Of a stretch of DNA of 64,000 nucleotides, positions 3,997 through 56,897 are shown piece after piece. Origin of the DNA: Nemertoderma westbladi (Eukaryota; Animalia; Xenacoelomorpha); NCBI GenBank assembly GCA_032718475.1, contig JAUCBJ010004176.1, positions 1 through 64,000 of the forward strand. The letters are read 5' to 3'. The notes below the pieces were generated by a model, which was given only the letters and a program-made list of their open reading frames with translations, was not told the origin of the DNA and did not search any database. The translations under genes were made by a program, and so were the position numbers. Position 1 is the stretch's first letter; each line of letters begins with the position of its first letter.

Positions 3997-4278
3997 CTGG
4001 TAGAGGAACCAAGAACAACCAAAAGGTCAACTTTCTTTACCCAATAATTAATTCACGATTACATAACAAGTAACAACTATTATTAATACATCTATATACC
4101 ATTTAATTAACATATTTTTGAGTATTTTCAATAATTAACAACAATTAATTTGGGATAGAAGGGATAGGTTATTATCAGAAACAATTAATAATTGACAGGG
4201 GCAATGACATTCATTGTTAAAGGACAAAGAAACGTTTAACATTTATACGACGAATTTTAAAACATTTACATGGCGGCG

Positions 4279-8679: not shown

Positions 8680-8970
8680 TCTGAGTCTATCAGATAGGGG
8701 GGGGGGGGGGGGGGGGGGGGGGGGGAAACTGGACGCGATAAAAATTCATCCCTCTCCTGGGGAAATTGGACTCAAGTAACAGCTGATTACTATCAAAAAT
8801 AAAACTGTAACCTGTTCTATTGTGTTTAGTTTATTGTTTTGGTTAAAATATTGTGCCACTGTAACCTGCTCCTTTCCCTAAATTGAGAATTTAACATTGA
8901 GGCGGGTTATTAATTCGCCAAGGCGGGTTTTGCGTCGAGTTTCCCCCCGCCTGTCTCGAGTCTATAGAGC
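8680..8970. mobile_element. MITE-like dispersed repeat carrying a shared ~100-bp core
   Basis: Core AAAATAAAACTGTAACCTG...CCACTGTAACCTGCTCCTTTCCCT recurs at about 19594, 20936, 18445, 23685 and 36465; imperfect inverted arms. Confidence 0.6.
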
Positions 8971-9171
8971 AGCCTGGTGTAGCTTGGGATGAATGTAACG
9001 GAATTTAACACGGGGCTGTTTGTGGCTAATAGTGCGGCTCAGATTTGCATAATTTGAGATACTTTAACCAATATATAATAATTGATGACTTCCAAAAAAA
9101 TAGAAATACAAGAATCGTAAAAAATGTTGAAAAAATGTGTAGGAGATAGAGAATATCTGATAAACGATATG

Positions 9172-12100: not shown

Positions 12101-15100
12101 CCCGGACCACACGAACTCACCACATTAAATAGATCCACTGTGAACCTGCGTAGTTACCCGGACCACACGAACTCACCACATTAAATAGATCCATTGTGAA
12201 CCTGCGTAGTTACCCGGACCACACGAACACACCACATTAAATAGATCCACTGTGAACCTGCGTAGTTACCCGGACCACACGAACTCACCACATTAAATAG
12301 ATCCACTGTGAACCTGCGTAGTTACCCGGACCACACGAACTCACCACATTAAATAGATCCACTGTGAACCTGCGCAGTTACCCGGAACCAAACGAACTCA
12401 CCATATTAAATAGATCCACTGTGAACCTGCGTAGTTACCCGGACCACACGAACTCACCACATTAAATAGATCCACTGTGAACCTGCGTAGTTACCCGGGC
12501 CACACGAACTCACCACATTAAATAGATCCCTGTGAACCTGCGTAGTTACCCGGACCACACGAACTCACCACATTAAATAGATCCACTGTGAACCTACGTA
12601 GTTACCCGGACCACACGAACTCACCACATTAAATAGATCCCTGTGAACCTGCGTAGTTACCCGGACCACACGAACTCACCACATTAAATAGATCCACTGT
12701 GAACCTGCGTAATTACCCGGACCCCGGACCACACGAACTCACCACATTAAATAGATGCACTGTGAACCTGCGTAGTTACCCGAACCACACGAACTCACCA
12801 CATTAAATAGATCCACTGTGAACCTGCGTAGTTACCCGGACCACACGAACTCACCACATTAAATAGATCCACTGTGAACCTGCGTAGTTACCCGGACCAC
12901 ACGAACTCACCACATTAAATAGATCCATTGTGAACCTGCGTAGTTATAGTTACCCGGACCACACGAACTCACCACATTAAATTGATCCACTGTGAACCTG
13001 CGTAGTTACCCGGGCCACACGAACTCACCACATTAAATAGATCCACTGTGAACCTGCGTAGTTACCCGGACCACACGAACTCACCACCTTAAATAGATCC
13101 ACTGTGAACCTGCGTAGTTACCCGGACCACACGAACTCACCACATTAAATAGATCCACTGTGAACCTGCGTAGTTACCCGGACCACACGAACTCACCACA
13201 TTAAATAGATCCACTGTAAACCTGCGTAGTTACCAGGACCACACGAACTCACCACATTAAATAGATCCACTGTGAACCTGCGTAGTTACCCGGACCACAC
13301 GAACTCACCACATTAAATAGATCCACTGTGAACCTGCGTAGTTACCCGGACCACACGAACTCACCACATTAAATAGATCCACTGTGAACCTGCGTAATTA
13401 CCCGGACACCGGACCACACGAACTCACCCCATTAAATAGATGCACTGTGAACCTGCGTAGTTACCCGGACCACACGAACTCACCACATTAAATAGATCCA
13501 CTGTGAACCTGCGTAATTACCCGGACCCCGGACCACAAGAACTCACCACATTAAATAGATCCACTGTGAACCTGCGTAGTTACCCGGACCACACGAACCC
13601 ACCACATTAAATAGATCCACTGAGAACCTGCGTAGTTACCCGGACCACACGAACTCACCACATTAAATAGATCCACTGTGAACCTGCGCAGTTACCCGGA
13701 ACCAAACGAACTCACCATATTAAATAGATCCACTGTGAACCTGCGTAGTTACCCGGACCACACGAACTCAACACATTAAATAGATCCACTGTGAACCTGC
13801 GTAGTTACCCGGACCACACGAACTCACCACATTAAATAGATGCACTGTGAACCTGCGTAGTTACCCGGACCACACGAACTCACCACATTAAATAGATCCA
13901 CTGAGAACCTGCGTAGTTACCCGGACCACACGAACCCACCACATTAAATAGATCCACTGAGAACCTGCGTAGTTACCCGGACCACACGAACTCACCACGT
14001 TAAATAGATCCACTGTGAACCTGCGTAGTTACCCGGACCACACGAACTCACCACATTAAATAGATCCACTGTGAACCTGCGTAGTTACCCGGACCACACG
14101 AACTCACCACATTAAATAGATCCACTGTGAACCTGCGTAGTTACCCGGACCACACGAACTCACCACCTTAAATAGATCCACTGTGAACCTGCGTAGTTAC
14201 CCGGACCACACGAACTCACCACATTAAATAGATCCACTATGAACCTGCGTAGTTACCCGGACCACACGAACTCACCACATTAAATAGATCCACTGTAAAC
14301 CTGCGTAGTTACCCGGACCACACGAACTCACCACATTAAATAGATCCATTGTGAACCTGCGTAGTTACCCGGACCACACGAACTCACCACATTAAATAGA
14401 TCCACTGTGAACCTGCGTAGTTACCCGGACCACACGAACTCACCATATTAAATAGATCCACTGTGAACCTGCGTAGTTACCCGGACCACACGAACTCACC
14501 ACATTAAATAGATCCACTGTGAACCTGCGTAGTTACCCGGACCACACGAACTCACCACATTAAATAGATCCACTGTGAACCTGCGTAGTTACCCGGACCA
14601 CACGAACTCACCACATTAAATAGATCCACTGTGAACCTGCGTAATTACCCGGACACCGGACCACACGAACTCACCACATTAAATAGATCCACTGTGAAGC
14701 TGCGTAGTTACCCGGACCACACGAACCCACCACATTAAATAGATCCACTGAGAACCTGCGTAGTTACCCGGACCACACGAACTCACCACATTAAATAGAT
14801 CCACTGTGAACCTGCGCAGTTACCCGGAACCAAACGAACTCACCATATTAAATAGATCCACTGTGAACCTGCGTAGTTACCCGGACCACACGAACTCAAC
14901 ACATTAAATAGATCCACTGTGAACCTGCGTAGTTACCCGGACCACACGAACTCACCACATTAAATAGATGCACTGTGAACCTGCGTAGTTACCCGGACCA
15001 CACGAACTCACCACATTAAATAGATCCACTGAGAACCTGCGTAGTTACCCGGACCACACGAACTCACCACATTAAATAGATCCACTGTGAACCTGCGTAG

Positions 15101-18100
15101 TTACCCGGACCACACGAACTCACCACATTAAATAGATCCACTGTGAACCTGCGTAGTTACCCGTAGCACACGAACTCACCACATTAAATAGATCCACTGT
15201 GAACCTGCGCAGTTACCCGGACCACACGAACTCACCACATTAAATAGATCCACTGTGAACCTGCGTAGTTACCCGGACCACACGAACTCACCACATTAAA
15301 TAGATCCATTGTGAACCTGCGTAGTTACCCGGACCACACGAACTCACCACATTAAATAGATCCACTGTGAACCTGCGTAGTTACCCGGACCACACGAACT
15401 CACACATTAAATAGATCCACTGTGAACCTGCGTAGTTACCTGGACCACACGAACTCACCACATTAAATAGATCCACTGTGAACCTGCGCAGTTACCCGGA
15501 CCACACGAACTCACCACATTAAATAGATCCACTGTGAACCTGCGTAGTTACCCGGACCACACGAACTCACCACATTAAATAGATCCATTGTGAACCTGCG
15601 TAGTTACCCGGACCACACGAACTCACCACATTAAATAGATCCACTGTGAACCTGCGTAGTTACCCGGACCACACGAACTCACCACATTAAATAGATCCAC
15701 TGTGAACCTGCGTAGTTACCCGGACCCCGGACCACACGAACTCACCACATTAAATAGATCCACTGTGAACCTGCGTAGTTACCCGGACCACACGAACTCA
15801 CCACATTAAATAAATCCACTGTGAATCTGCGTAGTTACCCGGACCACACGAACTCACCACATTAAATAAATTCACTGTGAACCTGCGTAGTTACCCGGAC
15901 CACACGAACTCACCACATTAAATAGATCCACTGTGAACCTGCGTAGTTACCCGGACCACACGAACTCACCACATTAAATAGATCCACTGTGAACCTGCGT
16001 AGTTACCCGGACCACACGAACTCACCACATTAAATAGATCCACTGTGAACCTGCGTAGTTACCCGGACCACACGAACTCACCACATTAAATAGATCCACT
16101 GTGAACCTGAGTAGTTACCCGGACCACACGAACTCACCACATTAAATAGATCCACTGTGAACCTGCGTAGTTACCCGGACCACACGAACTCACCACATTA
16201 AATAGATCCACTGTGAACCTGCGTAGTTACCCGGACCACACGAACTCACCACATTAAATAGTTCCACTGTGAACCTGCGTAGTTACCCGGACCACACGAA
16301 CTCACCACATTAAATAGATCCACTGTAAACCTGCGTAGTTACCCGGACCACACGAAATCACCACATTAAATAGATCCACTGTGAACCTGCGTAGTTACCC
16401 GGACCACACGAACTCACCACATTAAATAGATCCACTGTGAACCTGCGTAATTACCCGGACACCGGACCACACGAACTCACCACATTAAATAGATGCACTG
16501 TGAACCTGCGTAGTTACCCGGACCACACGAACTCACCACATTAAATAGATCCACTGTGAACCTGCGTAGTTACCCGGACCACACGAACTCACCACATTAA
16601 ATAGATCCACTGTGAACCTGCGTAATTACCCGGACACCGGACCACACGAACTCACCACATTAAATAGATGCACTGTGAACCTGCGTAGTTACCCGGACCA
16701 CACGAACTCACCACATTAAATAGATCCACACTGTGAACCTGCGTAGTTACCCGGACCACACGAACTCACCATATTAAATAGATCCACTGTGAACCTGCGT
16801 AGTTACCCGGACCACACGAACTCACCACATTAAATAGATCCACTGTGAACCTGCGTAGTTACCCGGACCACACGAACTCACCACATTAAATAGATCCACT
16901 GTGAACCTGCGTAGTTAGTTACCCGGACCACACGAACTCACCACATTAAATAGATCCACTGTGAACCTGCGTAGTTACCCGGACCACACGAACTCACCAC
17001 ATTAAATAGATCCATTGTGAACCTGCGTAGTTACCCGGACCACACGAACTCACCACATTAAATAGATCCACTGTGAACCTGCGTAGTTACCCGGACCACA
17101 CGAACTCACCACATTAAATAGATTCACTGTGAACCTGCGTAGTTACCCGGACCACACGAACTCACCACATTAAATAGATCCATTGTGAACCTGCGTAGTT
17201 ACCCGGACCACACGAACTCACCACATTAAATAGATCCACTGTGAACCTGCGTAGTTACCCGGACCACAAGAACTCACCACATTAAATAGATCCATTGTGA
17301 ACCTGCGTAGTTACCCGGACCACACGAACTCACTACATTAAATAGATCCACTGTGAACCTGCGTAGTTACCCGGACCACACGAACTCACCACATTAAATA
17401 GATCCACTGTAAACCTGCGTAGTTACCCGGACCACACGAACTCACCACATTAAATAGATCCACTGTGAACCTGCGTAGTTACCCGGACCACACGAACTCA
17501 CCACATTAAATAGATCCACTGTGAACCTGCGTAGTTACCCGGACCACACGAACTCACCACATTAAATAGATCCATTGTGAACCTGCGTAGTTACCCGGAC
17601 ACACGAACTCACCACATTAAATAGATCCACTGTGAACCTGCGTAGTTACCCGGACCACACGAACTCACCACATTAAATAGATCCACTGTGAACCTGCGTA
17701 GTTACCCGGACCACACGAACTCACCACATTAAATAGATCCACTGTGAACCTGCGTAGTTACCCGGACCACACGAACTCACCACATTAAATAGATCCACTG
17801 TGAACCTGCGTAGTTACCCGGACCACACGAACTCACCACATTAAATAGATCCACTGTGAACCTGCGTAGTTACCCGGACCACACGAACTCACCACATTAA
17901 ATAGATCCACTGTGAACCTGCGTAGTTACCCGGACCACACGAACTCACCACATTAAATAGATCCACTGTGAACCTGCGTAGTTACCCGGACCACACGAAC
18001 TCACCACATTAAATAGATCCACTGTGAACCTGCGTAGTTACCCGGACCACACGAACTCACCACATTAAATAGATCCACTGTGAACCTGCGTAGTTACCCG

Positions 18101-18192
18101 GACCACACGAACTCACCACATTAAATAGATCCACTGTGAACCTGCGTAGTTACTCGGACCACACGAACTCACCACATTAAATAGATCCACTG
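9172..18192. repeat. 56-bp satellite, about 160 copies, made of the exon 8 end plus donor
   Basis: Unit GTGAACCTGCGTAGTTACCCGGACCACACGAACTCACCACATTAAATAGATCCACT; period confirmed at 9241 and 9297. Confidence 0.98.
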
Positions 18193-18268: not shown

Positions 18269-18514
18269 CTGAAATAACAGTAAATACTGAAAGTAACTGC
18301 AGTATTGGGAAATAGGCAATAGGAAAATTAGGTAAAAAAATCGTTTGGAAAAACGCAATTGGATCGGGAGTTCTTAATAGCGCAAAATAACAATCGCAAA
18401 GAGCGTTTAAAGGAATTAATTTAATATAATTTAAAATATTAAGAGGTAGGAGCAGGTTTCAGTGGCGGTGTTTTATAACCAAAGCATGGGGGGTCGGTCA
18501 AATATTGAACTAAC

Positions 18515-19505: not shown

Positions 19506-19716
19506 AAAACGCGGATCCGGATCCGGATCCGGATTCTACATTTAACATTGTCTCTACGGAAGTCGATTTTCTTTACATTTTTATAACTCCCAAAAATAAA
19601 ACTATAACCTGTTCTATTGAATTTAGTTTATTGTTTTGGTTAAAATAACGTGCCACTGTAATCTGCTCCTTTCCCTTAATTGATAATTTTGGAATCCGGA
19701 TCCGGATCCGCGTTTT
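19506..19716. mobile_element. MITE with (GGATCC)n terminal inverted repeats
   Basis: AAAACGCGGATCCGGATCC...GGATCCGGATCCGCGTTTT flank the shared core. Confidence 0.7.
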
Positions 19717-20802: not shown

Positions 20803-21211
20803 CTGGCAGGATATAGAATAAAGGTTTTAATCAAGTAATATGTGTGAACAAAAAACAAAGGATAATTTACCATTCCTACGGGAGATGGGATTCTCTTCGG
20901 GGAAATTAGTGGCAAATGTTAGCTAAAAACGAGAAAAAATAAAACTGTATTTTGTTTATTGTTTTGGTTAGAATGTCATACCACTATGCGTAACCTGCTC
21001 CTTTCCCTTAATTGATAATTAACATTTTTAATCGCCGAAATGGGATTTGCATCAAGCCCCCTGTCTGGTTTCCTATAAACAGAGTAATAAATTATTTAAT
21101 AATTTAATGTTAAAGATATTTCGATAGAAAATAAAATTAGATATTATATATGTGATATAACAATTTATTATTACTAAAATGGTTGTCACGTATTTTAACT
21201 ATAACGCTTAC

Positions 21212-21495: not shown

Positions 21496-23879
21496 CTGTA
21501 ATAATTAACACTTTGAATAGATTCTAAACTATAATGTGAATAAATGTGCTGAAATATTACTAAATAAAAAACTAATTACAATAATTTTGTTTTAGAACCA
21601 CAATTATTGTTTTAATTTTTCATTGGTGTTTAGTCGGCCAAGTACAGTAGGGTTGAGCACTGTGGCAGCAGATTATTGTATTGACAGATGGGAGGCCGTG
21701 AGGAGGTAAATTGCGGACATACCTAAGCCGCTAGCTGAATGGTTAGAGGGTTAACCCGTAGGTCAACACGTTCGTGGGGCCTTCGCGCAGCACGAGGCCC
21801 AGTTATGAGATACAAATTAAAATTGAGCGACTGTATCACAAAATCAGGTTTTGAGAAATTTACCCACACCACCAATCAATCAAAGAAAGGGGGACAGTAC
21901 GTGTTCACCCCTTTTAATCCCCCCCCCCCCCCCCCCCACCCTTCCCAACCACCAATACATAACCGCGACATCTACCACCCACGGAAGGGTAGCACGAACT
22001 TATTTCCAATCGCACGTTCAATATGCAAAGCCAGGTGGTTTATAGGAATATAATAAACGCAGTACTCGTATTCATTATAAGCCTCGTTGCGTTCGTCCTG
22101 TTTTGTATTTAAATATATTTCTTAAACGCAGGCTAGGACGTTCTTTATAATAATAATAACTAGGGATGCGATCAATATGTGAAGCCAGGTGGTTTATATA
22201 ATAATTTAGTCAACGCAGTACTCGTCTTCATTATATGCCTCGTTGCGCTCGTCGCTTGTCCTGTTTTGTTATAAAATATTTTTCCTAAACGCAGACTGAC
22301 GATCTTTATACAGTTATAACTATGCGAAGTTTCGAAACTGTGCGAGTAACTGTTGATACATCTATGTGGATATGTGTGATATGTGGAGATGTGTGATACA
22401 ACGCCAACGCATCTTATGCCGATGTAGTAATATGGGTATTGAAATAATATTAAATTAATGTACACTCTTAAAGCTGCAGCGAAAAAATGTAGCTAATTTC
22501 CTAGGTTACATATAAAATAATAATATTATTTTTAAGAACATTAATTTTACTACTTTGCAAAAATTCAATTAAAAAATAACCAGACATATATATACATTGT
22601 GGAATAAACTATTTCAGAAGCCTACACAACAGCCATGCCATGGATAGTATTTATGTTATGATATCTGTCATTCACCTGAGATAGCAATACAACATTTATA
22701 GTGAATTTAAAGAATGCTGTCTGGGCTGGAATAGCAATACTGGTTGTCTATTACTATTCCTCTCTGGTTAGTCTTAGCAACAACTCCCAGCCAGCAGCAG
22801 AGACTTGACCAATAATGGGAAGGATTAAATTTGTACTCAATAATTGTGCGGTTTAATTACGTTTAGATCAATTAAAGACACAATTATTAAAGCAAATCAC
22901 TTGAACTAATTAAAAACTATAATAGAATGGCGTATGGGGATTACATCTGTATAATTTTTAATTATAATTATTTAAATCTTATACTGTAAAACAATTAATT
23001 TCCTTTAAAAGGCAGGTTGAAAATGGTGTTTTTACCGTAATAACTTAATTAACTAATTAACTGCTATTATCTTAGCTTCTCGAAGGCCACACTGAAATTC
23101 TACTTAGAAAATTTCTAAACTTTTGCCAAACAACATGTGTACCAAGTTTGGATAGATTTCATCAAAGATTGGCCGAGTTATTAACGTTTAAAATTGAACG
23201 CGACAGAACGACAGAACGACAGAACGACAGGTTGATTAATGGTACCACTACGCTAAGGCTCACTCACTTCGTGGCTCGCCCCACAGTTCGATCCCACCTG
23301 GACATCATTGCCGACTTTGCAAAGCTGTACCCAACAAAACCTTACAATTATTGTGGGTCACAGGCACTGTTAAAAAGGTTGATATAAAAGTGGATATGTG
23401 AATCTAGGGCTACTACTTTTTTCGATTCGAGGCTCTACGTTTATTCTTGGTGTGGCGATCTGTAATTTGGCCGAACTTTGTTCCTCTACTTGCGAACTAT
23501 GTTCCTATCGAATTTTCAAGGATAATTATGTTCTAATTATTGCGAACTTTGTTCCTATCAATGCGAACTTTGTTCCTATTATTGCGAACTTTGTTAGAAT
23601 CTCTGTAAGTTACTTTCAGTTTGTGGAAAGGATTATTTAGTATATCTAACTTAATGAGTAGTTCAAGTAGTTAAGAACATTAATGGAAAGGAGCAGGTTA
23701 CACTGGCGGTGTTTTCTATCCAAAACAATAAACTATAAATAATTTCACTTGCGGTCAATTTGTGCTGAGGATTACTATTTTCAATTGCGCTCAATGTGCG
23801 TCACTATCTGATTATGTGATGTATTAGGCCTAGGAACAGGCGGAATACGTAGTGAATGGAAATTATGGTCTCAAAAAAA

Positions 23880-24075: not shown

Positions 24076-24408
24076 GCATACCTATAATATTACGCTATAA
24101 TGTTTAATGTCAAAATTTTATTAAAATAAAAAAATTACCCATTCGAATCAATAATTATTAGAATTTGATGACTTCAGTTTGCGTTATAGGAAAAGGATAT
24201 AGGTTTGCGCTATGAAACTGAATGATTGGGTGTTTCAAATGTTTACTTTTAATTTCAAAGTCGCAAACATTACCTTAATTATTGTTATTCTTTGGGACAT
24301 AGGATAATCTGACACTAGGGCACGTATTACTAGTATGTACGTTACGTACAAACTAAGTATTCTTAGTAAATCAATATTAAAATAATTTATTATTGAAATT
24401 GGCTGGAC

Positions 24409-25589
24409 ATGTCTGAGGCAGATATCTTCTTTAAGTATAAACACAAATGTCTCAGTCTGTCCCATGTCTGAGGCAGATATCTTCTTTAAGTATAAACACA
24501 AATGTCTCAGTCTGTCCCATGTCTGTGGCAGATATATTCTTTAAGTATAAACACAAATGTCTCAGTCTGTCCAATGTCTGTGTCAGATATCTTCTTTAAG
24601 TATAAACACAAATGTCTCAAGTCTGTCTCATGTCTGTGTCAGATATCTTCTTTAAGTATAAACACAAATGTCTCAAGTCTGTATCATGTCTGTGTCAGAT
24701 ATCTTCTTTAAGTATAAACACAAATGTCTAAAGTCTGTCTCATGTCTGTGGCAGATATATTCTTTAAGTATAAACACAAATGTCTCAAGTATGTCCCATG
24801 TCTGTGGCAGATATCTTCTTTAAGTATAAACACAAATGTCTCAAGTCTGTATCATGTTTGACGTCTGTGGCAGATATCTTCTTTAAGTATAAACACAAAT
24901 GTCTCAGTCTGTCTCATGTCTGTGGCAGATATCTTCTTTAAGTATAAACACAAATGTCTCAGTCTGTCTCATGTCTGTGTCAGATATCTTCTTTAAGTAT
25001 AAACACAAATATCTCAGTCTGTCTCATGTCTGAGGCAGATATCTTCTTTAAGTATAAACACAAATGTCTCAGTCTGTCTCATGTCTGTGTCAGATATCTT
25101 CTTTAAGTATAAACACAAATGTCTCAGTCTGTCTCATGTCTGTGTCAGATATCTTCTTTAAGTATAAACACAAATGTCTCAGTCTGTCTCATGTCTGTGT
25201 CAGATATCTTCTTTAAGTATAAACACAAATGTCTCAGTCTGTCTCATGTCTGTGGCAGATATCTTCTTTAAGTATAAACACAAATGTCTCAAGTCTGTCT
25301 CATGTCTGTGTCAGATATCTTCTTTAAGTATAAACACAAATGTCTCAAGTCTGTCTCATGTCTGAGGCAGATATCTTCTTTAAGTATAAACACAAATGTC
25401 TCAGTATGTCTCATGTCTGTGTCAGATATCTTCTTTAAGTATAAACACAAATGTCTCAGTCTGTCTCATGTCTGAGGCAGATATCTTCTTTAAGTATAAA
25501 CACAAATGTCTCAGTATGTCTCATGTCTGTGTCAGATATCTTCTTTAAGTATAAACACAAATGTCTCAAGTCTGTCTCATGTCTGTGTC
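24409..25589. repeat. 53-54-bp minisatellite, about 22 copies
   Basis: Unit ATGTCTGTGTCAGATATCTTCTTTAAGTATAAACACAAATGTCTCAGTCTGTCTC. Confidence 0.95.
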
Positions 25590-26075
25590 CAGCAAATGCC
25601 TGGTGATTTCTCACATCAAACACCGCCGGCTTTCAGACAAATATGTCATCAGACTGTCTGAGTCTGAGCTCAGACTCTTGTCTGACATCAGACGAAGTAT
25701 AACAGGTACTTGTATTAACTGGTACTGGTATTATTGGGATGGTATAACAGGTATTTTTTTGTTCCTCTTGATATTTTTGCGAATTTTGATCTATATTAAT
25801 TATATATTAATATCTATATTAATATCTATATTAAATCTGTATTAAGATCTATGTTATCCTGGATAAATGCATCATCCTATGCAGATAAATATAATATTAC
25901 GCTAATGTTTAATTTCAAAATTGATATAGTAGTTGTCCATTGGGGAGTTGTAGGGCCCTATAACGTTACCCAGTTGAGGAGCCATGTTACCCAGTTTCGT
26001 TTATCTACTGTAGGACTAGTTACTGCAGTACTGTAATTGTGAGTGAAACAAATTCTCTGTCACAGGAACAAAATT

Positions 26076-26121
26076 AGCGCTACTGATGAGGCCTGATAGG
26101 CTGAAACGTACGTATAGCGCT
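26076..26121 (+). ncRNA. Minimal type I hammerhead ribozyme, copy 1
   Basis: AGCGCTA-CTGATGA-GGCCTGATAGGCT-GAAA-C-GTAC-G-TA-TAGCGCT. Stem I 7 bp, conserved core, palindromic loop 3, predicted cleavage after GUA at 26114. Confidence 0.9.
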
Positions 26122-26426
26122 GGTTCAATTCCCGGTGACGCGCTTTCTCTTTTTTTCCATTTCTGAACAAAACCAAAATATTACATCTTTAATTACAGTT
26201 GCATTAACAGCTCAACTCCAATTTATTTATTTAATATCACCTGGCAGCAATACTCGAGCTGAATATTTATTTAATTGTAGGCCTACTTTCCTCCTGTTTC
26301 ACTCTAGCATACTTGAGGCCGGTAGGTCCGCTGTTAGAGATAGGATATGCAACTTAAAGACTGCCTGTTCAATAGAAGTGGATTAGGTGGGATAGTGAAT
26401 GTCAGGGGCAAGTGGCTGAACTGGTT

Positions 26427-26472
26427 AGCGCTACTGATGAGGCCTGATAGGCTGAAACGTACGTATAGCGCT
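26427..26472 (+). ncRNA. Minimal type I hammerhead ribozyme, copy 2, inside a tRNA-like unit 26401-26490
   Basis: Identical to copy 1 and 351 nt downstream; predicted cleavage after 26465. A-box TGGCTGAACTGG (26413-26424), B-box GGTTCAACCCC (26473-26483), T6 at 26502-26507. Confidence 0.9.
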
Positions 26473-26624
26473 GGTTCAACCCCCGGTGACGCGCTTTCTA
26501 ATTTTTTCCATTTCTGAACAAAACCATAATAAAGTCAATAGGACAGATTACAGTTTTATTTTTGAGAGAAATCAAATATTATTCGTGTCGATTTTCTCCT
26601 GGAGAGGGACTATTGTCCCTCTCC

Positions 26625-26855
26625 ATTTAGTTTGATGCCGTTATGTAGTTTGATGCCGTTATTTAGTTTTACGAGCCACATAGTGAGTGAGCCTCATAGT
26701 ACGAGTATCATTGCTGCATATAGGGGGTGGGGGACTTTCAACTAATCCAATGTTGCGAATCTGCAGCAATGATAATCGTACGATGAGGCTCACTCACTAC
26801 GTGGCTCGTAAAACTAAATAACGGCATCATACTAAATAACGGCATCAAACTAAAT
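26625..26855. mobile_element. Palindromic MITE with ~94-bp inverted arms
   Basis: ATTTAGTTTGATGCCGTT...TTGCTGCA and TGCAGCAA...AACGGCATCAAACTAAAT. Confidence 0.8.
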
Positions 26856-28446
26856 AACACCTAATTATGAAGTGATGATCAACAACCATGGCGGAAACGA
26901 TAATACAATTAAAATAAAGCAGCATAATAATAATATGGCCTCATGAAATATTTATGATGGATATTCGATGGATATTACCAATTCCAATTGACAAGCTCTG
27001 CCCGCATATATTATTTATGTTGAACCAGCAGCCCGAAGACAATAATATTTTATTATTAAATAAAGTCGTAAGTCGTTCTTGGATTAAACTAAATCGAACA
27101 TACTATAAAACGGAATACCGAGCAGTATAAACCAAGTATATTCAAATTATTCTCATTATGTTACGGATGATAGGTGTCTTGTTTCGTTGCCAAACCCAAG
27201 GCTGTGTCGTTTTATAGACAAATAGCATAAATAATTGCCAATTGTATTTAATGCAGCTGCTTAATTCACATATTTTTGACTCAGACTTGTCCATTTGTCA
27301 TTTTATATTATAGTTTTAGCTTATGGCAATTTAATGTTGTTTACTACAAAATAATGTAGACTTGTCTTGAAATTGTTATTTTCCAGTTGTAGGACCTACT
27401 GGTAATTAAATTATATTTATTGAAACCTGTGACATTTCTTTACTCAGGTGACTTCAAAACAGGCGGTAAATAATCGATCACTTTTTACAAACAGTTATTT
27501 ATATAATTGGGCGAACTAAGTTCATATCATATTCATCTTAAATTTATACATTAATTGTGGCCCACGCCGAGATCTTGGGACGTTAGTGACTGCGGGCACT
27601 AACGTCCCCCAATCCATGCCGATCCCGGTCTATAAGAGTTCCGATGCAGCAAGGCTTGCATCTTGGATCTCGGCCTGCTACTGACATCGTGCGATATGTT
27701 CTGATGTTAATGTACTGCATTCCCTTCTAAATTAATCACTCTCCGTATTCTTTTTCGAACTTATTCCATGCCATGTCATTGGCATGGGAAGCGCTTTATA
27801 CAATTACATAATGAGTTGTTTGTTTTACAATTCGAAAGAAATCATAAAAAGTGGTACCCGCCATGCCATAAAGTAGTAAATAGTTTAAAAATGAGAATAG
27901 TTGAATATAATATGCAATATATCTAAATGGCTAGACAGGTCTTCATGTATATGGTTGTATAGCAGGGACGGTAACCTTTGAAGAAATGATAGATGAAAAA
28001 TGTAAATTAATATAATATATGACTTTACTAGTCACAATTAAATTTATAGTATTTACTTTAGGAAATCTCAGATTAGAGTATAATTCCTTATCTAGATCAA
28101 TCAAAAGTCTGCCCGTTTATGCGACGGTCACTGTGGTACCGGTATACTTCATATCATTTATATTGCCAATCAGTTTTAATCACGAGTTACATACTCTCAG
28201 AATCTTAGTATTGTTAGTTGATATTTGATTTACCATCTACTGTTTAAATAACGTTTGCTCAATCACAGCTCAAAGTCACACCGATACCTTCTGTGTTAGT
28301 AAATATGTGTTGTACATTAATCTGAGTCACATAATATATACAGTTTTTAGTTGTTACTTTACTATACAAAGTTTTTTGATATAGATAGTACCGTACCGTA
28401 TCCATAAACCATGTAATAGTTGAAATTTTCGGTATGAAAATTCATA

Positions 28447-30816
28447 ATGAGTCGCATTCATTTACAACGACTTGGAATTTTAATATTTGTTTGTTTTCGC
28501 GAAATTAACTGTATAAATAATTGCGTTGTCAATACGTCCACCATTGATACTGTGGAACCGGCCAACTGTATACCCATCATTACTATTAAAAGCCAAACAC
28601 CAGCTAACCGACCACAGTGGTACGGGAGTGGAGTCGCTGGAACAAAGACCAGTTCAATTCAATGTGTCGGTCAGCTTAATAAATCGGACAATGTGGAACT
28701 TTTATATAATTACGTTAAAACTAAACAACTCGATGTAAACAACGCATTGCCTATTAACCAACCCGAAAGCGCCGGCATCTATCAATGTGTATCCAAGAAC
28801 GCATTGGGGACATTTATGTCCAGTTCAATGATATTCGATGTTATTGGGGAAGATCATGATGTTATCAACAACCGTTCAAATGAATACAACGCAACAGTTG
28901 GACTACCTTTGTACATTCAGTGCCCATTGTGGCGGAAAGGCATTAGCATTACTTGGGACTTATTGGATACAAGCGATGATAGGGACATACGTAGAATCCC
29001 AGATGATAAAGGCAATCTGAACATTGTTAAAGTTGAAAAGGCGGATGGAGATGGAATCAGCTGCGTAAGATATTCATTTCTCGAAACCGGAGCCCAAGAT
29101 CCAGTAGCCAAAAAGTTTCATTTTAAGATTAATGTTAACGAATCTCCTACCGATAATTATAATACAGATGAGAGCGATTTTGTTGACAAAGGCGAAACAT
29201 TGGTAGAACTTAAAATCCGTGTTGGATACAAAAAGAGATTGTCCTGCCCGTTTTCGCAACATGGTGATGTTTTATGGTACAAAGACGGTCAACGTATTAA
29301 CGAAATAGAAGACAAATTCATTAAAATAGATGAGCTATCCCCACAAATATTAAATTTAGAAAACGTGACACTAAATCACAGTGGTAGTTACATGTGTGAG
29401 CTCAATAATACAGGAGTAAAACGCACATTCAATGTTACAGTACTTACTCCTCCAATATTCAATATGCCCATTTTATTGCCCAGTGAACGGGCTTTCTATA
29501 ATGGAACGATAACAGCAATCTGCACTTTACAAGATAGACAGTACGAATTCCCTGAGAATGGTATTAAACTGTTAGCTAATGGAAAGGAAGTTACCAAAGA
29601 TTGCAAATCGGGATGTCCGATCGTAACCACCTCAGATAAAAATACCCTCATTATTACGATACACACCAGAAACAGAGATGAGACAACAGTGCTGCAATGC
29701 GCGGCAAAAAACACCCAAGGGACAACAATTGTACACGTAGTTACCGTCGTTTCAAGGGAGGGACCTCTCGGTGTTGCCAACATTACCGCTTTCCCCTTGG
29801 CCTGTGGTATGACTTTATGGTGGGATGAACCGTCATTAAGTGATATATTTTTCCGGATTACGTATAAGAGTAAATCCGGACAAAGAGTTCTGAATATCCC
29901 AGTGGAAGTAAATAGTACAAAGAAGTACTACACATTTCGGGGGTTGGGATGCGATGTCGAGTACATGTTCTACGTCAGATCGCTGAATAAAACATCGGGA
30001 TTGGCAGGAGAAACTGTGACACTTACAAACAGAACATTAAAGGGACAACATTTTTTTGATCTGCGCAAACCCGATAAACCAGAACTATTGAGTTACAACG
30101 ACGGAGTAATGAAACTTGTAATCCAGAAGTGGAATGGGAAGGGTTTGGCCCCGGAGGGACACTTTATAGAGAAGAGGAAATCGGAGAAGTCCGATAAGAA
30201 GAGAAGCGCCGACAATGAATGGACAGCGTCGAGTGATGTGCATCGCTGGAGTCGCAATCAAACGGTCGAGTTTGATGGACTTACAACTGGGAAATACTAT
30301 GAATTCCGCGTAGTTGCGTATTCGAATCCGCAATCTGTAAGAATTATGAAGCTGGGAGAAAGTAAAACATTCTTAGCCAAGGAAATTACAACGGAAAGAG
30401 GGAAGATGGAAGATGGGAAGATTGAAGAGAGAAGATCGAGACAAAGCTATGTAGCAGTAATAGTGGCAGTTATAATAGTAGTTATTCTCATTCTTCTACT
30501 CGGTTTACTTCTCACTCTAAAGTATAGCAGACACCGGGCCTCGTATCCCCTCAAAATTTATGAGAACAAATTTAGACATAAAGACGCTGTAAGTTATCCT
30601 TTGAAGGACGATAGAGGTGTGTTTCTAGAGATGGAGAAAATTCGTAGACCCCGGGGCAGACATGTGATTCACCGTGGATCGGCTATGGGAGAATCCGACA
30701 GCGAATCTTTGAATGAATACGATTGCGATAATACGAATAGTTTCTATAACGAAAACGGGAGTTTTATAGGACAATATAACAGACAATCGTGGCCGGGTGT
30801 TCCTCATGTGGTATGA
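28447..30816 (+). CDS. L1CAM/neuroglian-family cell adhesion molecule, short form, intronless, nested antisense in RPGR intron 4
   Basis: Signal peptide, about 4 Ig domains (WYKDG, SGSYMC, GIYQC), 2 FN3, a transmembrane helix, and the cytoplasmic ankyrin-binding motif NENGSFIGQY. Confidence 0.9.
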   Translation: MSRIHLQRLGILIFVCFREINCINNCVVNTSTIDTVEPANCIPIITIKSQTPANRPQWYGSGVAGTKTSSIQCVGQLNKSDNVELLYNYVKTKQLDVNNALPINQPESAGIYQCVSKNALGTFMSSSMIFDVIGEDHDVINNRSNEYNATVGLPLYIQCPLWRKGISITWDLLDTSDDRDIRRIPDDKGNLNIVKVEKADGDGISCVRYSFLETGAQDPVAKKFHFKINVNESPTDNYNTDESDFVDKGETLVELKIRVGYKKRLSCPFSQHGDVLWYKDGQRINEIEDKFIKIDELSPQILNLENVTLNHSGSYMCELNNTGVKRTFNVTVLTPPIFNMPILLPSERAFYNGTITAICTLQDRQYEFPENGIKLLANGKEVTKDCKSGCPIVTTSDKNTLIITIHTRNRDETTVLQCAAKNTQGTTIVHVVTVVSREGPLGVANITAFPLACGMTLWWDEPSLSDIFFRITYKSKSGQRVLNIPVEVNSTKKYYTFRGLGCDVEYMFYVRSLNKTSGLAGETVTLTNRTLKGQHFFDLRKPDKPELLSYNDGVMKLVIQKWNGKGLAPEGHFIEKRKSEKSDKKRSADNEWTASSDVHRWSRNQTVEFDGLTTGKYYEFRVVAYSNPQSVRIMKLGESKTFLAKEITTERGKMEDGKIEERRSRQSYVAVIVAVIIVVILILLLGLLLTLKYSRHRASYPLKIYENKFRHKDAVSYPLKDDRGVFLEMEKIRRPRGRHVIHRGSAMGESDSESLNEYDCDNTNSFYNENGSFIGQYNRQSWPGVPHVV

Positions 30817-31269
30817 GACATGCGAAGAGAAGCATCAGTGATAGAACAATGTTCACAAAGGCCCAATTACCGACCAATTGTCCGCGGTTCAATAATTGCG
30901 GCATGATGGCCACCATTCATTGACTATTTATTATCGAATTGAGATAAAACTTGGTACGCATGTATATATAACCGGAATTGCAGCTTCGCGCCGCTAAAAA
31001 TATTATGATTAATAATCAAGACGTCAATGAAATTCAGCAATACTTTATGATATTTTTTGTTCTCGTGCAACTCAAAGTTCCACGAACCTTTTTTTAAATG
31101 TTTTTTAATAAGTTGGTTTATAACCTTGTGCTGTGTTTTATTACAATATGTTATTTATCGGAAATATAATAGAGTTTGTGTGCGAAAAAATAGTATATTT
31201 AGAAACAGATAGAGTTGTTTACTTAACAAACAAATTCCGTGACCTATGGTGGTCCTATTATGTAATAAA

Positions 31270-31497
31270 TTAATTGTATTGTAGTTGAGCTGTTAATGCA
31301 ACTTTAATGAATGATGTTGTAATAAGTTGTTCAGAAATGGAAAAAAAATGAGAAAGCACGTCACCGGGGGTTGAACCAGGGCTATGTACGTTTCGGCCTA
31401 TCAGGCCTCGTCAGTAGCGCTAACCAGTTCAGCCACTCTCCCCTGACACTCGCCTTTCTATTTATTCCAGTTCGAGTGGACAGGCAGTCTTTAGCAA
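31270..31497 (-). mobile_element. Third copy of the hammerhead/tRNA-like element (ribozyme 31378-31421, probably inactive)
   Basis: Minus strand GTCAGGGGAGAGTGGCTGAACTGGTTAGCGCTA-CTGACGA-GGCCTGATAGGCC-GAAACGTACATAGCCCT-GGTTCAACCCCCGGTGAC then a T-run; 2-nt deletion at the cleavage triplet. Confidence 0.8.
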
Positions 31498-31827
31498 CCC
31501 CCCCCCCCCACCCTCCGTGTGATTGCACCTATTATGTAACTCACCAGTAACGACGGCGGTGTGATTAATTCCGCAACCCCCCCCCCACACCCTCTGTGTG
31601 ACTGCACTTATTATGTAACTCACCAGTAACGACGGCGGTGTGATTAACTCCGCAACCTCCCCCCCCCCCCCCCCCCTCTGTGTGATTGCACCTATTATGT
31701 AACTCACCAGTAACGACGGCGGTGTGATTAATTCCGCAACCCCCCCCCCCCCCCCCCCCACACCCTCTGTGTGACTGCACTTATTATGTAACTCACCAGT
31801 AACAACGGCGGTGTGATTAACTCCGCA
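31498..31827. repeat. 79-89-bp tandem repeat (about 4 units) of the RPGR exon 4 end plus donor plus poly-G
   Basis: ACTG|GTGAGT donors at 31796, 31707, 31623 and 31544. Confidence 0.92.
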
Positions 31828-32395: not shown

Positions 32396-32467
32396 GGGCT
32401 TGTCCGGGAGTCGAACCCGGGACCTCTCGCACCCAAAGCGAGAATCATGCCTCTAGACCAACAAGCC
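32396..32467 (-). tRNA. tRNA-Pro(TGG) in RPGR intron 3
   Basis: GGCTTGTTGGTCTAGAGGCATGATTCTCGCTTTGGGTGCGAGAGGTCCCGGGTTCGACTCCCGGACAAGCCC; 72-nt cloverleaf followed by a T4 terminator. Confidence 0.97.
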
Positions 32468-33128: not shown

Positions 33129-33699
33129 TGTAGTTTTATTCCAAAATTTTAACATTACGAAATGATTGTACATATACATTATAAGTGATAGAAACTGCAC
33201 GAATTATATTAGTTGCTGTATAAATAAATGTAAAAATGACATAAATTATGTTATAAATAAGTTAGTTTATATTTATCGCGGCGTTTTGGAGCCGTTATAA
33301 TAATATAGCTAGGCCCTACTGGTTATTAATAGCTATACCCCACCTACCGGTAGGTAATGCAGTAGGCCTATCTGGATGTGAGGCAAATTTCCACCTATTA
33401 TTTACGTGGCGTTAAGTAATGTCCAATAAGGGGACATTACTTAACTGATAACACCAAATACGATATATCGTATTTGGCATAAATTATCACCCATATCGAT
33501 TGACTGAACAGTGAACCTGAACAGTACAAATACTTCTACGTAAAGTCGGCCTAGTTACTTACCAGTTTAGTCCACAGAGCAACGTAATTTGTCTAACCAT
33601 TTAATCATTTTATTGCCATTTTGGTTGGTACAATATAGGGAGCTCAACGCGAACCGTACCGTACCGCGCCTATCAGATTAGGCGCCCTAGTTCCTACAT

Positions 33700-34225
33700 T
33701 ACACCACCGCATCATATTATAATCGCATCAGGGATCCCATTGATAGACTGCTCCATGGAAATCAGAATGGGTTCCGTAAAGGTCGTGGGACCATGGAGCC
33801 CATTTTGGCACTTAGAAGGATAATTGAAGAGTTATCAAAAAAGAAAGACAGGCATCTGGCTGTTATCTTTGTTGACTTCTTCAAGGCCTTTGATTCAGTC
33901 TCTCGCTCACGTATGTTCAGCATACTTTCATTATATGGGATTCCTGGTGAAATTATTGCAGCAATCAGATCAGTATACGATGGTTCGACAACATTTGTGT
34001 CTACTGTTGACGGTGACACAGAACCATTTGTAGTGCTATGGGGAATCATTAGCTCATTAGAACATGCTGCTTCTAGTGTTGGTCTTTTTATTAACTCCAA
34101 AAAGACCAAAATTTTGACAGTTAACTTTGAAAGTCCTCAGCAAGTCTCTGATCGGATGAGCATAAGCTCAAAGGATGGTATGCTTGAGCATGTGGATGAC
34201 TTCTTTTACCTGGGATACGTGGCGG
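33700..34225 (+). mobile_element. RTE-like LINE reverse transcriptase fragment with an internal deletion
   Basis: QNGFRKGRGT...FVDFFKAFDSVSR...GLFINSKKTKIL...DFFYLG; the QG and YADD motifs are missing. Confidence 0.85.
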
Positions 34226-34883
34226 CGCAATTTTGTCGACAAGCCGGCACAGCATTTTTAATATATATGTAATATATATATAATGCAGCTGCAATGCAGC
34301 ATGCCGATCCTAGTACTGTAGTAGTAGTACATTACACGCTTGTAGCTAAAGATTGAAAGCAAAAATAAAAATTCTGGCTCACCAACTAAGCAGGATGAGG
34401 GTAGTGGAACTAACTCTGTTTCAAATTTCATGCTATCTCATTAAGGGTCATTCGTGGGGGGGGGGGGGGGGGGGGGGGGGGGGCATGTACCTGAATAACG
34501 ACACTACATTCCAGGACAGGGTGTAATATTTCAACAATTTGTTATCTCTGTGGCAACACCAAAAAATATGTTAGAGGCCGTAATTTTTTTGAAAATGGTT
34601 TTTATCGCATTCTTTAAAAACACATTGTAGAAAAGTAACAATCATTATTTTAAGGAAATTAAAATGTTTTTTTTTCAAAATTTTGATAGACTGATGGCAA
34701 CCGCAGCAATAAATGTTTCAAATTTTTAATCAGGGGTTTAACTGTAATTACTGACTTAATAAACTCAATAAACTAAACTCAATAAGATTTCTTAGATTAG
34801 AGCCTCATTACTAAATATTTACGAACATCGCGTAATTATAGCCAAACAGCTGCATTATATACATTTATTTACGACGGACTTAC

Positions 34884-36260: not shown

Positions 36261-37065
36261 TTCTTACGGTGCGCGAGATAAGGTCAATAAGAAGTATAAA
36301 CCGGTACTGGAGCAGAACATTTAGACCAACTCGCTTGCCGTTACCGGTAACCGAAAAATGCAACCCATAAATCTGTGGCTGCGTGGGCTGTTCTGTCGAG
36401 TCAATGGCTCAAAATGACCGCAAAGCAAGGTTAGTGGGTTTGATAAATGAATTTAAAACATTAAGAGAAAGAAGCTGGTTACAGTGCGGCGGTGTTTTCT
36501 AACAAAAATAATAAACGATAGGCCTACGTTATTTCCCTTGCGGTCAATTTGCCCTGAAGATCACAATTTTGACTAGCGGTCAATTTAATGAATCCGTTAA
36601 CAACGACCGTTAACCGTTCTGTTTCCGGTCACTGGGTCAATCGTCAATGTCTGCTGGCTGGCTGGCTGGGGAGGGTTAAGGTTCGTCAACGACGTAAGGA
36701 TACCGGTTCTGCGGTTTACGCGGAAAACAAAGGCGCGGTAGCCTAGAAGAGAACAATAAAATCAGCAAATATATGAAATGCCAAAATGAACAACGCAGCA
36801 CTCGTTAGGCTGTTAGGTAGGTATCGGTACCGTAGTTAGAACTTAGAAGAGCAGAACCGGTACCGGTATAACAAACAGTATAAACGGTAGGCTGGTAGGT
36901 ACTGTAGTTCTCACATAATTCACTATCAGGCAATGTGATGTTTCTAGGCAACGGATATGAAAATGGTGAATAAATTTGATGTATTTAATTTCTGAATTTA
37001 AATTTAATTATTCCTTTAGTTACCAATATATTCCACTGTTGCATTGGGTTCCACTTTGAATATAT

Positions 37066-40616: not shown

Positions 40617-42557
40617 TTATGTTTCCGCTCGCGATTTCTTCTTCTTCGGCGATACTGGAACCGCCACGATTTCCTCGATTAAACTATCATCCTGTTTATC
40701 TTTCTTCTTCTTCTTCTTCTTGGAAGCGCTCCGGGACTCTTCCGGACAGATAACGCGACACGGAGACGTCGGAATACCTTCCACAACATCAGCCGTTGTA
40801 TCGCCGTTCAAGGATATATCTTTATCTTTCTTCTTCTTCTTCTTTTTGGATGATAGCGACACAGCCGATGTTTCTAAACTATCAATAGTGACGTCAGCCT
40901 CAGAAACAGTGACGTCACCTACATTATCCTTCTTTACTTTCTTTTTCTTCGATGACTTCGGTTCCTCAACTACCGTCTTTTCGGTAACGACCTCAAAGTC
41001 TTGACTCTCGTCAACCTTCTCACGCTTTACTTTCTTCTTTTTCTTAGAAGTTTCCGACTCGTCAAGAGGTTCCCCTACATCGACCTCGGGTTCAACCACA
41101 TCAGCCGGAATCTCTTCAATTAATCGTTTATGTTTCTTCTTCTTCGTCGGAGGTTCCGAAGTTTCAACGTGGCCGATATTCCGCTTCACTCCACCCGACG
41201 TCCCCCCTTCTCCCTCATCCGCCCCCCTTTCCCCCGCGGAGGGGGCCACGGAGTCTCCACTCGCGTCGTACACCTTCCCGGGCCCGATCTTCGCCACGAA
41301 CTTATCGTGCTGCCCCTTGACCTTGGCCAACCCGCTCACTCTGTGCGTCCGCCCCTCAACCAACTCCCGTATGCGCTGCTCCAACCGAGCGCGATGCTCC
41401 ACCCCCATCATGGAGTTACTATCGTCGGAGAGCGCGTCGTACCGCACCGCCAATGCCGTCTTGGTGGCCATCATCCGGGAGACCTTCCCCTTGTGGTTGG
41501 CCGCTGTCTGACTGACCATGGACGCGTGGTAGATCAACCCGTACTTGGGCGTCGCGTGGTGCGTCTTGAGGGCGCGGAACAGCGCCTTCTCCGAGCCCAT
41601 TATCTGCACGGTGGAGGCGGGACACTTCGCGAGGTTGGTGAGCGAGCCCGCGTGGGCGATCAACCGCGCGCCCACCAACTCGCCCGCCATTATCGACAGG
41701 TTGGGGGCGACGGTCATCATCCTCGAACTTATGTAATCGTGGAGCTGCACGCGGTAGGCCGTCATATCGATGACCTGCTGACACATGTAGGATATATTGG
41801 CGATGTCTTCGGGGGCGATCTCCGAACCCATGGAGACTTCGGCCGCCTCTTTAATCTGCTCCTCGACGTCGCTAGGCAATATATCGGAGAAGTCCAACCC
41901 CGCGGCGTTCTCTTTCATTCCCATTAGACGGATTGTTTTCGCGTAGATCAGTTGATCGCTTATGATCTTTCCCATCTCCGGGAAGTGCCATCCGTACCAC
42001 TCCCGACAGCGCATCGCGTAGTTGTTGAGTTCTTTGTCGAGATCGTCCAGCAGTTTTATACCTTGTATGATCATGGTGTCTATCTTGTCGGCGCTGAACT
42101 TCAGCTTATAACGGGACAGCCCGTGGGCCAACCCCAAGGCCATCGCCGCCATCTCCTTGTGTGGGTAATCGGCGATCAAGGAGTCCATCTGGGAGCGGAT
42201 GCATCGCATCAGTTCCTGGACGCCGGTGTTGTAAACGCAGTTTAAATCGAATTTCTCGCGGATTAGGTTGCCGAGTTTGGCGTCGGCCACCGCTAGTTTC
42301 TCATGCGGATCCTTCGCCACCAACCGTTTTACGAGTTTCTTTAAGGATTTACTTAATTTGCTCTCGACGGCGGCAGTAGCCGCAGCCAACGCCTCCGTTG
42401 TGTCTTTAAACTTCTCGAAACATTTGAGTTTGACGACTTTGCTCGCAGTCTCTACCGATTCGAACTGTTCATAGAGATTATCCACAGCATCGATCTTGGA
42501 GTCGTCGATGAGTTTAAATATAGCGTAGCCGCCTGAGGTTTCGAACAAGACCAACAT
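40617..42557 (-). CDS. NOP58: Nucleolar protein 58 (box C/D snoRNP), single-exon CDS
   Basis: MLVLFETSGGYAIFK start, DLDKELNNYAMRCREWYGWHFPE, GSEKALFRALKT...TPKYGLIYHAS, Lys-rich tail. Confidence 0.97.
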   Translation of the reverse strand: MLVLFETSGGYAIFKLIDDSKIDAVDNLYEQFESVETASKVVKLKCFEKFKDTTEALAAATAAVESKLSKSLKKLVKRLVAKDPHEKLAVADAKLGNLIREKFDLNCVYNTGVQELMRCIRSQMDSLIADYPHKEMAAMALGLAHGLSRYKLKFSADKIDTMIIQGIKLLDDLDKELNNYAMRCREWYGWHFPEMGKIISDQLIYAKTIRLMGMKENAAGLDFSDILPSDVEEQIKEAAEVSMGSEIAPEDIANISYMCQQVIDMTAYRVQLHDYISSRMMTVAPNLSIMAGELVGARLIAHAGSLTNLAKCPASTVQIMGSEKALFRALKTHHATPKYGLIYHASMVSQTAANHKGKVSRMMATKTALAVRYDALSDDSNSMMGVEHRARLEQRIRELVEGRTHRVSGLAKVKGQHDKFVAKIGPGKVYDASGDSVAPSAGERGADEGEGGTSGGVKRNIGHVETSEPPTKKKKHKRLIEEIPADVVEPEVDVGEPLDESETSKKKKKVKREKVDESQDFEVVTEKTVVEEPKSSKKKKVKKDNVGDVTVSEADVTIDSLETSAVSLSSKKKKKKKDKDISLNGDTTADVVEGIPTSPCRVICPEESRSASKKKKKKKDKQDDSLIEEIVAVPVSPKKKKSRAET

Positions 42558-43200
42558 GATTGCACAAAAGTAATCGTAAATAATAAACTATAGAAAATCA
42601 CAATAAGGTTCCCCTTTGATACAATAAAAATCCGAAATAATACGGAATGGAGAGTTATATTATATTATTTAAATTTCCAGCATATTCATTCACTTCATTC
42701 ACCTTAAGTTTACTATGTATGTCCAGAATGGGACCACATCATAAAGTGGAGAGAATTAGGGACATAAAAATGTGAATTAAATGTTTCATTCCTTACCAAA
42801 CAGCTTACATAACAACAAGGAAGCCCATATTTGACAGACTCACACTTCTAGATAGTTAACTATACCAAATTATTATTTAAATATTTTCATTTGGCTGGTA
42901 CAATATAGGCGGATAGTGTTTGTATTAGCAGACCGCCTAGAGAGCCTGAGCATAGCTCAATAAGCTGAATTTTACATTAATTGTAATTCAATATATATAC
43001 GGATACAAAACTTACTTAGGTCTATATAATCTTATCCGACTGGATATAGATAGAATAAAGGAAATTTTGAGATTATCTGGTGTAATTGAAGTTGCAGATT
43101 ATTTTATTGTATCAGTTAGGGGACATAAATGTGAAGTAGAGATTTACGAATGTTTTAGTTTCAGAATCGATTGATGATCAAATAAAATAAAACAGTTTAT

Positions 43201-56700: not shown

Positions 56701-56897
56701 TTATATATATTTGTGCTAAAATTATATACCGGTACTCTGTGACAAACCTAGTTTACAATACTTATATATACTATAAGTGTATACCGGTATTCTAATATAT
56801 TGTAATTAATTACCGGTACTAGGCTAACAGTGATACTGAATTACTAGACTTGCTTTGACTATAATATAGCAGTAGGCATTCAACTGTACAATCAAAC

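Follow-up and report, generated by a model that had tools for sequence, protein, structure and literature searches.

What kind of element carries a hammerhead ribozyme between the two boxes of a tRNA-type RNA polymerase III (Pol III) promoter? The question is raised by a locus in a 64,000-nucleotide stretch of DNA from Nemertoderma westbladi (contig JAUCBJ010004176.1, hereafter the window). A sequence-only reading of this locus had placed a hammerhead between an A box and a B box and proposed, as the element itself, a Pol III RNA of about 105 nt. The unit that is repeated proves instead to be 351 nt long. Our preferred reading, to which we give a probability of roughly 0.58, is that this high-copy repeat is likely a retrozyme of the animal non-LTR type, with a predicted hammerhead between likely tRNA-derived Pol III A and B boxes that are themselves predicted to form the outer part of ribozyme stem I.

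The 351-nt unit and its copies in the window

The window holds three copies of the hammerhead repeat, designated A, B and C (Table 1). Copy A begins abruptly at 26074 and is joined to copy B, and the ribozymes of the two are exactly 351 nt apart. In the monomer delimited by the two predicted cut sites, the B box is found near the 5' end and the A box near the 3' end. The unit is non-coding; it contains a single stop-to-stop frame of 93 codons, which has no Pfam match. Similarity among the window copies extends from about 45 nt upstream of 26401 to about 75 nt past the T run. Copies B and C differ by 7 substitutions in 121 positions from 26401 on, versus 13 in 46 positions upstream (p=2e-4). 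A 2-nt deletion in copy C disrupts both stem III and the cut triplet, and its stem I carries a mismatch as well.

Table 1. Positions of the hammerhead repeat and its parts in the window
Feature	Position	Strand	Remark
Partial tandem (1.3 units) of 5'-truncated copy A and copy B	26074..26531	+	family depth from 26072 to 26531
Hammerhead A, intact core	26076..26121	+	predicted cut after 26114; A box lost by 5' truncation
Cut-to-cut monomer, 351 nt, 41% GC	26115..26465	+	spacing of two GUA triplets
B box of copy A	26122..26132	+	
T7 run of copy A	26150..26156	+	sole T run of at least 4 in the monomer
AT-rich stretch, frequent 3' end of family copies	26218..26235	+	putative priming site
Spacer upstream of predicted Pol III start	26236..26365	+	also high-copy, from depth and bridging contigs
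Purine-rich 5' arm of predicted rod	26366..26400	+	pairs with 26491-26520
Leader	26401..26412	+	conserved block begins here; Pol III start predicted nearby from A-box distance
A box	26413..26424	+	26417-26422 predicted paired with B box (distal stem I)
Hammerhead B, of canonical type I with a palindromic loop 3	26427..26472	+	predicted cut after 26465
B box	26473..26483	+	begins 60 nt after A-box start
Pyrimidine-rich 3' arm of rod	26491..26520	+	contains T6 at 26502-26507
Candidate 12-bp target duplication of copy C	31254..31265	-	partner at 31528-31539
Copy C, 5'-truncated at equivalent of 26355	31266..31493	-	both boxes intact

The partner of the candidate target duplication is separated from copy C's 5' end by 34 nt and falls within a host tandem repeat in which the same motif recurs, which makes the duplication uncertain. 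Copies A and B together show no clear target duplication, and their 3' end abuts another repeat. A search for their empty site, using the left flank, matched none of the six copies of a neighbouring repeat. All three copies lie between minus-strand RCC1-repeat exons, and they are probably situated in introns of one gene. Copies A and B are antisense to this gene, and the lone sense copy, C, is the one with the broken cut site, which is a single case.

The window has several other features. A second dispersed repeat family (26519-26609, 8749-8892, 19579-19689, 20946-21026, 23671-23795, 18428-18486 and 36450-36584) truncates copy B at 26531 with one of its copies. Directly after the copy B region, an inverted repeat of about 177 nt (26625-26855) with 81% identity and 18-bp subrepeats has a MITE-like appearance. 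Adjoining the 5' end of copy C are about four tandem copies of a unit of approximately 84 bp (31494-31827) that duplicates the end of an RCC1 exon and its splice donor. An intronless 792-codon frame resembling neuroglian/L1CAM (28438-30816, plus strand; Ig, Fn3 and Bravo_FIGEY domains) lies antisense between RCC1-repeat exons, and NOP58-like (40617-42587) and CHMP2A-like (48117-48818) frames on the minus strand are likewise uninterrupted, the best full-length protein matches of the latter reaching 76%. Long tandem arrays with periods of about 31, 56 and 55 bp occupy 4260-7834, 9170-18192 and 24408-25587. Two RT fragments, which we take to be LINE-like, and a DUF1759 gag-like frame, presumably of BEL/Pao type, are found on the plus strand at 33691-34272, 52608-53786 and 56865-60764.

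Ribozyme, boxes and predicted fold

The ribozyme of copy B consists of a 7-bp stem I (26427-26433 with 26466-26472), the core CTGATGA (26434-26440), a 4-bp stem II (GGCC/GGCT; 5 bp counting a T-A pair) followed by GAAA, and a 2-bp stem III with the palindromic loop GTAC, and its GUA triplet ends at 26465. Upstream, GTCAGGGG is located at 26401-26408, as had been stated, and GGTGAC is found 3' of the B box, followed by T6 at 26502-26507, a candidate Pol III terminator. The remaining motifs listed for the unit are likewise all present at the positions claimed for them. This includes the T run after the B box, whose length is six residues in copy B (T6), seven in copy A (T7) and eight in copy C (T8).

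Minimal type I hammerheads had been named for comparison; the ribozyme fits the canonical and not the minimal definition, as these are given in the available part of PMC4209133. Rfam misses it at gathering thresholds, although a weak match to Hammerhead_3 (E 0.24) is obtained for hammerhead B. The CTGATGA/CTGACGA and the stem II G-U/G-C variants had been suggested to keep the structure. Copy C, the source of these variants, is broken; G-C closure of stem II is nevertheless the family majority, with 72% of the summed depth in X1, one of the four DNA runs considered below. Stem III is predicted to be unstable as a lone hairpin (+2.4 kcal/mol), whereas between two copies it would form an 8-bp duplex of -9.8 kcal/mol, so that cleavage as a dimer or in trans is plausible from the modelled energies. 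A loop 3 variant that breaks the palindrome accounts for 13.5% of X1 depth. The sequence RNYA in loop 2 is a contact motif, and we left it out of the evidence.

A strict pair of A and B boxes is found twice in the window, both times in the hammerhead family, and in none of 30 shuffles. The estimated chance of such a pair per 351-nt unit is 6e-7, or 9e-6 when only those A-box letters are counted that are unpaired or weakly held in the fold, and the joint chance of the motif set is about 1e-5 or less. The strings used for matching are those we take to be the A-box and B-box consensus. As a control, a tRNA-Pro(TGG) gene in the window (32396-32467, minus strand), situated some 900 nt from copy C and flanked by RCC1 exons, fits the B pattern and a loose A pattern. 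The distance between the two boxes is 60 nt in copy B versus 43-45 nt in four control tRNAs. The start of Pol III transcription is set by its distance from the A box.

The predicted fold contains the proposed pairing of TGAACT in the A box with GGTTCA in the B box, which extends stem I across a GGTT bulge. The ends of the unit had also been expected to pair like an acceptor stem. An outer GTCA/TGAC pairing is indeed present in the predicted fold, but it is out of tRNA register. In that register the unit forms 2/7 acceptor, 2/4 D-stem and 3/5 T-stem pairs, compared with 7/7, 3/4 and 5/5 in the tRNA-Pro control. The 110-nt stretch folds no better than its shuffles (z +0.39), and neither ARAGORN nor Rfam calls a tRNA at 26401-26510. 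A tRNA-like fold of the 105-nt piece is not borne out by these results. A tRNA gene, with or without an intron, was rejected as well, since the cloverleaf stems are out of register and both programs are silent.

A longer rod is predicted from the pairing of the two arms listed in Table 1. In copy B this duplex has an energy of -24.6 kcal/mol versus -12.2 kcal/mol for shuffles, and 3 of 1000 shuffles are as strong; for copy C the number is 44 of 1000. In copy B the corresponding fold is significant (z values of -3.2 and -2.6), whereas copy C (-0.6) and the circular monomer (-0.7) show no significance. Between B and C, 18 of the 26 rod pairs are identical, five are changed on one side, three are broken and none is changed on both sides. 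In 24 variant rows from the DNA runs, which are unphased, seven keep the pair, seven break it and ten fall at unpaired positions. Support for the modelled rod across copies is therefore best called mixed.

Copies in four DNA runs and relatives elsewhere

We examined the family in four DNA runs of organism A (X1-X4), which represent at most three samples, one of them possibly the source of the window. Contig pieces on 26340-26560 number 2300, 1531, 1215 and 90 in the four runs, and those on 26030-26424 number 2894, 1813, 1553 and 141, with every bin covered from 26072 on. The unique flank at 26030-26057 is covered in X1 only. Summed depth over the unit in X1 is 10^3 to 10^4 times that of a single flank contig, which hints at a high copy number and is not a copy count. 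In many contigs the repeat reaches upstream of the predicted start by about 165 nt and continues for about 75 nt beyond the T run. Tail, spacer and head are bridged by contigs such as X2 record 12 (26220-26405) and X1 record 3 (26088-26347). A solo copy, X4 record 23, extends from 26218 to 26424 and continues from 26074 to 26234, and so covers the full length of the unit.

Loose 3' ends with unlike flanks cluster at 26229/26230, in at least 26, at least 19 and at least 19+15 contigs of X1-X3. Copy C and X1 record 1 also end within the AT-rich stretch. The 5' ends of copies vary (26074, 26304 and 26355), and opposite-strand joints are among those listed in X1-X3. Descriptions of Penelope-like insertions and of non-LTR retrozymes match this pattern. 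None of the listed X1 variants at 10% or more falls in the invariant core or breaks a box. The only one inside a box is 26420 A>G, which keeps the purine. X4 record 31 (26406-26527) is a deep (1108) contig of a divergent subfamily; among the variants of equal depth, stem I has gained 4 nt and the trailer differs in several places.

Relatives were sought in metagenome, viral and prokaryote collections, none of which is a set of animal genomes. A core plus B-box pattern was found at 118 metagenome loci (27/64 parts) and 19 viral loci, and none of these 137 has stems I and II of at least 3 bp. The A-box plus core pattern gave 120 viral loci (13/64 parts scanned). Only 2 of the 257 loci fit a loose A-core-B pattern, and by eye neither forms stem II. 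A profile search for a source tRNA found only three tRNAs within the 257 loci, and the exact family motif does not occur in the prokaryote genomes.

The arrangement had not been recognised from the sequence, and the literature searched likewise describes no A box-hammerhead-B box order; in their available parts, PMC6309819 and PMC6155905 contain nothing on the layout of boxes and ribozyme. Its novelty is provisional because some primary papers, a supplement, Repbase and Dfam lie outside that search. The combination of Pol III boxes with a hammerhead is known from Sm-alpha, and it is the interleaved order that provisionally sets this repeat apart.

Known elements and competing explanations

Metazoan non-LTR retrozymes, as far as the accessible parts of PMC7229834 and bioRxiv 10.64898/2026.07.22.740005 describe them, are non-coding repeats of 150-450 bp with less than 50% GC (PMC7229834) and a type I hammerhead, and they occur as tandem and solo copies in high copy number, with a proposed circle and Penelope-type mobilisation. 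The repeat described here shares these features. Each of copies A and B contains a type I hammerhead with its core and stems I-III, two complete ribozymes follow each other at the 351-nt spacing (the short contigs of the runs show no longer arrays), and GC content is below the 50% limit. Target duplications of retrozymes, when present, exceed 4 bp. We consider it very probable that the hammerhead repeat is a retrozyme. However, metazoan non-LTR retrozymes are described without promoters in the sections available of a 2020 review (PMC7761336), whereas in this repeat strict A and B boxes flank the ribozyme and T6 follows.

The Schistosoma repeats Sm-alpha and Sj-alpha combine a tRNA-derived Pol III promoter with a type I hammerhead in about 335 bp (PMC6765202, PMC2770079, PMC8490949; each in part). 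Unit length, tRNA-type boxes and type I hammerhead are thus similar, and we also count as a likeness that tandem copies are needed, the upstream promoter transcribing the next unit. The order of the parts differs. The portion of the review available draws the promoter and then the hammerhead, and in one Sm-alpha-like copy from part of the PMC8490949 supplement, read by eye, both boxes are ahead of the core. In contrast, the predicted cut site here lies between the boxes with the B box 3' of it, the boxes are predicted to form stem I, and T6 comes after the B box.

Penelope-like pseudo-LTRs, in the excerpts available of PMC4209133 and bioRxiv 10.1101/2021.04.23.441226, share with the repeat a type I hammerhead with palindromic loop 3, a truncated copy before a fuller one, and inverted pieces. 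Partial tandems, 5' truncation and inverted pieces are all found here and are not exclusive to Penelope elements. Unlike pseudo-LTRs, the unit has no reading frame and its ribozyme is canonical, and no Penelope partner (RT with GIY-YIG) was found among the 27 window ORFs scanned. The Helenus tRNA-promoter TRIMs, as partly available in PMC10886601, are similar in being non-autonomous elements with a captured tRNA-like sequence that lacks the tRNA fold and is thought to act as a Pol III promoter. However, they are of LTR type with a primer-binding site and polypurine tract, and that text mentions no ribozyme.

No paper on engineered tRNA-embedded hammerheads was among the literature matches listed. 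To express ribozymes from Pol III, they have been inserted into tRNA genes, between the A box and the B box; these constructs are artificial and act in trans. Vault RNAs have A and B boxes at their paired ends around a variable middle; Rfam gives no vault RNA match at E up to 10. In a classical tRNA-derived SINE, the tRNA head is the start of the element, and a LINE-like tail, either A-rich or made of simple repeats, is its end. This class was rejected, as about 165 nt of family sequence come before the head and no LINE piece of the window matches the tail.

How would such a retrozyme be transcribed and copied? Under the preferred reading, TFIIIC would bind the A and B boxes and Pol III would start near 26400. 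T6 would end most transcripts, leaving an RNA of about 105 nt, which is plausible. Since T6 is only about 37 nt past the cut site, Pol III would mostly stop well before the next ribozyme. Some transcripts from tandem loci would span two ribozymes, either because termination leaks or because transcription from outside reads through. In yeast, Pol III frequently runs past primary terminators, in the part of the source available, and by analogy leaky read-through past T6 is possible. Copy A has no A box, so at 26074-26531 only the short RNA of copy B is expected from Pol III.

Cutting of a two-ribozyme transcript would release a 351-nt monomer that has the B box first and the A box last, and from this layout only ligation or a tandem arrangement would restore the promoter. 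A host ligase would close the monomer and thereby restore both the ribozyme and the A-to-B order; RtcB closes other retrozymes in vitro. A Penelope-type reverse transcriptase, which is probably the enzyme that moves the repeat, would prime in the AT-rich stretch and take the circle, or a multimer that was not cut, as template, so that insertions would be permuted, truncated, tandem or inverted. The family copies span sequence outside the region from 26400 to T6 and end about 115 nt past the cut with the ribozyme intact. From this, the template has to be a circle or a multimer left uncut, and neither the 105-nt piece nor a cut linear monomer. A point against the preferred reading is that in Xenopus only 1/9 retrozyme dimers cleaved in vitro, according to the part available of bioRxiv 10.64898/2026.07.22.740005.

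We lean, from the sequence, towards a working Pol III promoter in the hammerhead repeat. The main alternative, which we regard as rather unlikely, is an ordinary promoterless retrozyme. Its boxes would be what remains of a captured tRNA or SINE head, retained as the distal stem I needed by the ribozyme, its T run would be structural, and all its transcription would come by read-through from host promoters. It agrees with the 2020 review, in whose available sections retrozymes seem to lack promoters and to rely on read-through (PMC7761336), and with the decay of the tRNA stems. The TGAACT/GGTTCA pairing also ties the boxes to the structure of the ribozyme, and part of the A box is accounted for by this pairing. 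In the rod, the T run pairs with the purine-rich arm that precedes the predicted start; this offers a second explanation for it, and a terminator function is not required. Between B and C the boxes have 0/23 changes versus 7/98 in the rest of the core, a difference that is not significant (p=0.34). However, A-box letters that are unpaired in the fold (26413, 26416, 26423 and 26424) still fit the consensus, the only T run of at least 4 directly follows the B box in the position of a tRNA-gene terminator, and the best-kept block starts at 26401, the predicted start.

The retrozyme with its own Pol III promoter around the ribozyme, in which cleavage permutes the promoter and ligation rebuilds it, can be taken a step further. 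An abundant RNA of about 105 nt could pair through loop 3 with rarer long transcripts and cut them in trans, including host pre-mRNAs with a sense copy. We consider this extended version doubtful.

Spread at the DNA level, satellite-like or aboard a DNA transposon, by a repeat whose ribozyme has lost its cleaving activity, seems to us quite improbable. The instability of the stem III hairpin would be expected, as would the broken copy among the three in the window and the variant without the loop 3 palindrome. However, the invariant core of the family is intact, the stem III formed by a dimer is stable, fixed 3' and ragged 5' ends together with inversions suit reverse transcription, and a coral retrozyme hammerhead of the canonical type I cleaves efficiently, as stated in the part available of PMC7229834. 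Least probable of all is the stand-alone model, in which a small-RNA gene or SINE-like unit that yields an RNA of about 105 nt constitutes, on its own, the element that moves or has a function. The spacing of A box, B box and T6 is that of a small Pol III gene and B/C conservation increases at 26401, but the repeat reaches well beyond the start and the T run, its main 3' ends are at 26229/26230 and not at the T run, and the 110-nt fold is unexceptional, so that contig extents largely refute it as the mobile unit and leave it only as a by-product transcript.

For the preferred reading of a retrozyme with interleaved boxes, the significance lies in how animal retrozymes are transcribed, as the 2020 review states in its available sections that they seem to lack promoters (PMC7761336); Sm-alpha is the known exception. 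In this repeat a candidate promoter is plainly identified and shares sequence with the ribozyme, which allows effects on promoter function and on catalysis to be told apart by single changes. Exact RNA ends are predicted near 26400, 26465/26466 and 26502-26507, along with a circle of 351 nt. If Pol III use fails, the repeat would be another retrozyme family that bears a tRNA relic. If Pol III use is true, the same sequence of a natural element would serve as promoter at the DNA level and as ribozyme helix at the RNA level. Cutting would then split the promoter and rejoining of the RNA would restore it, which is a testable idea on the transcription of likely mobile repeats.
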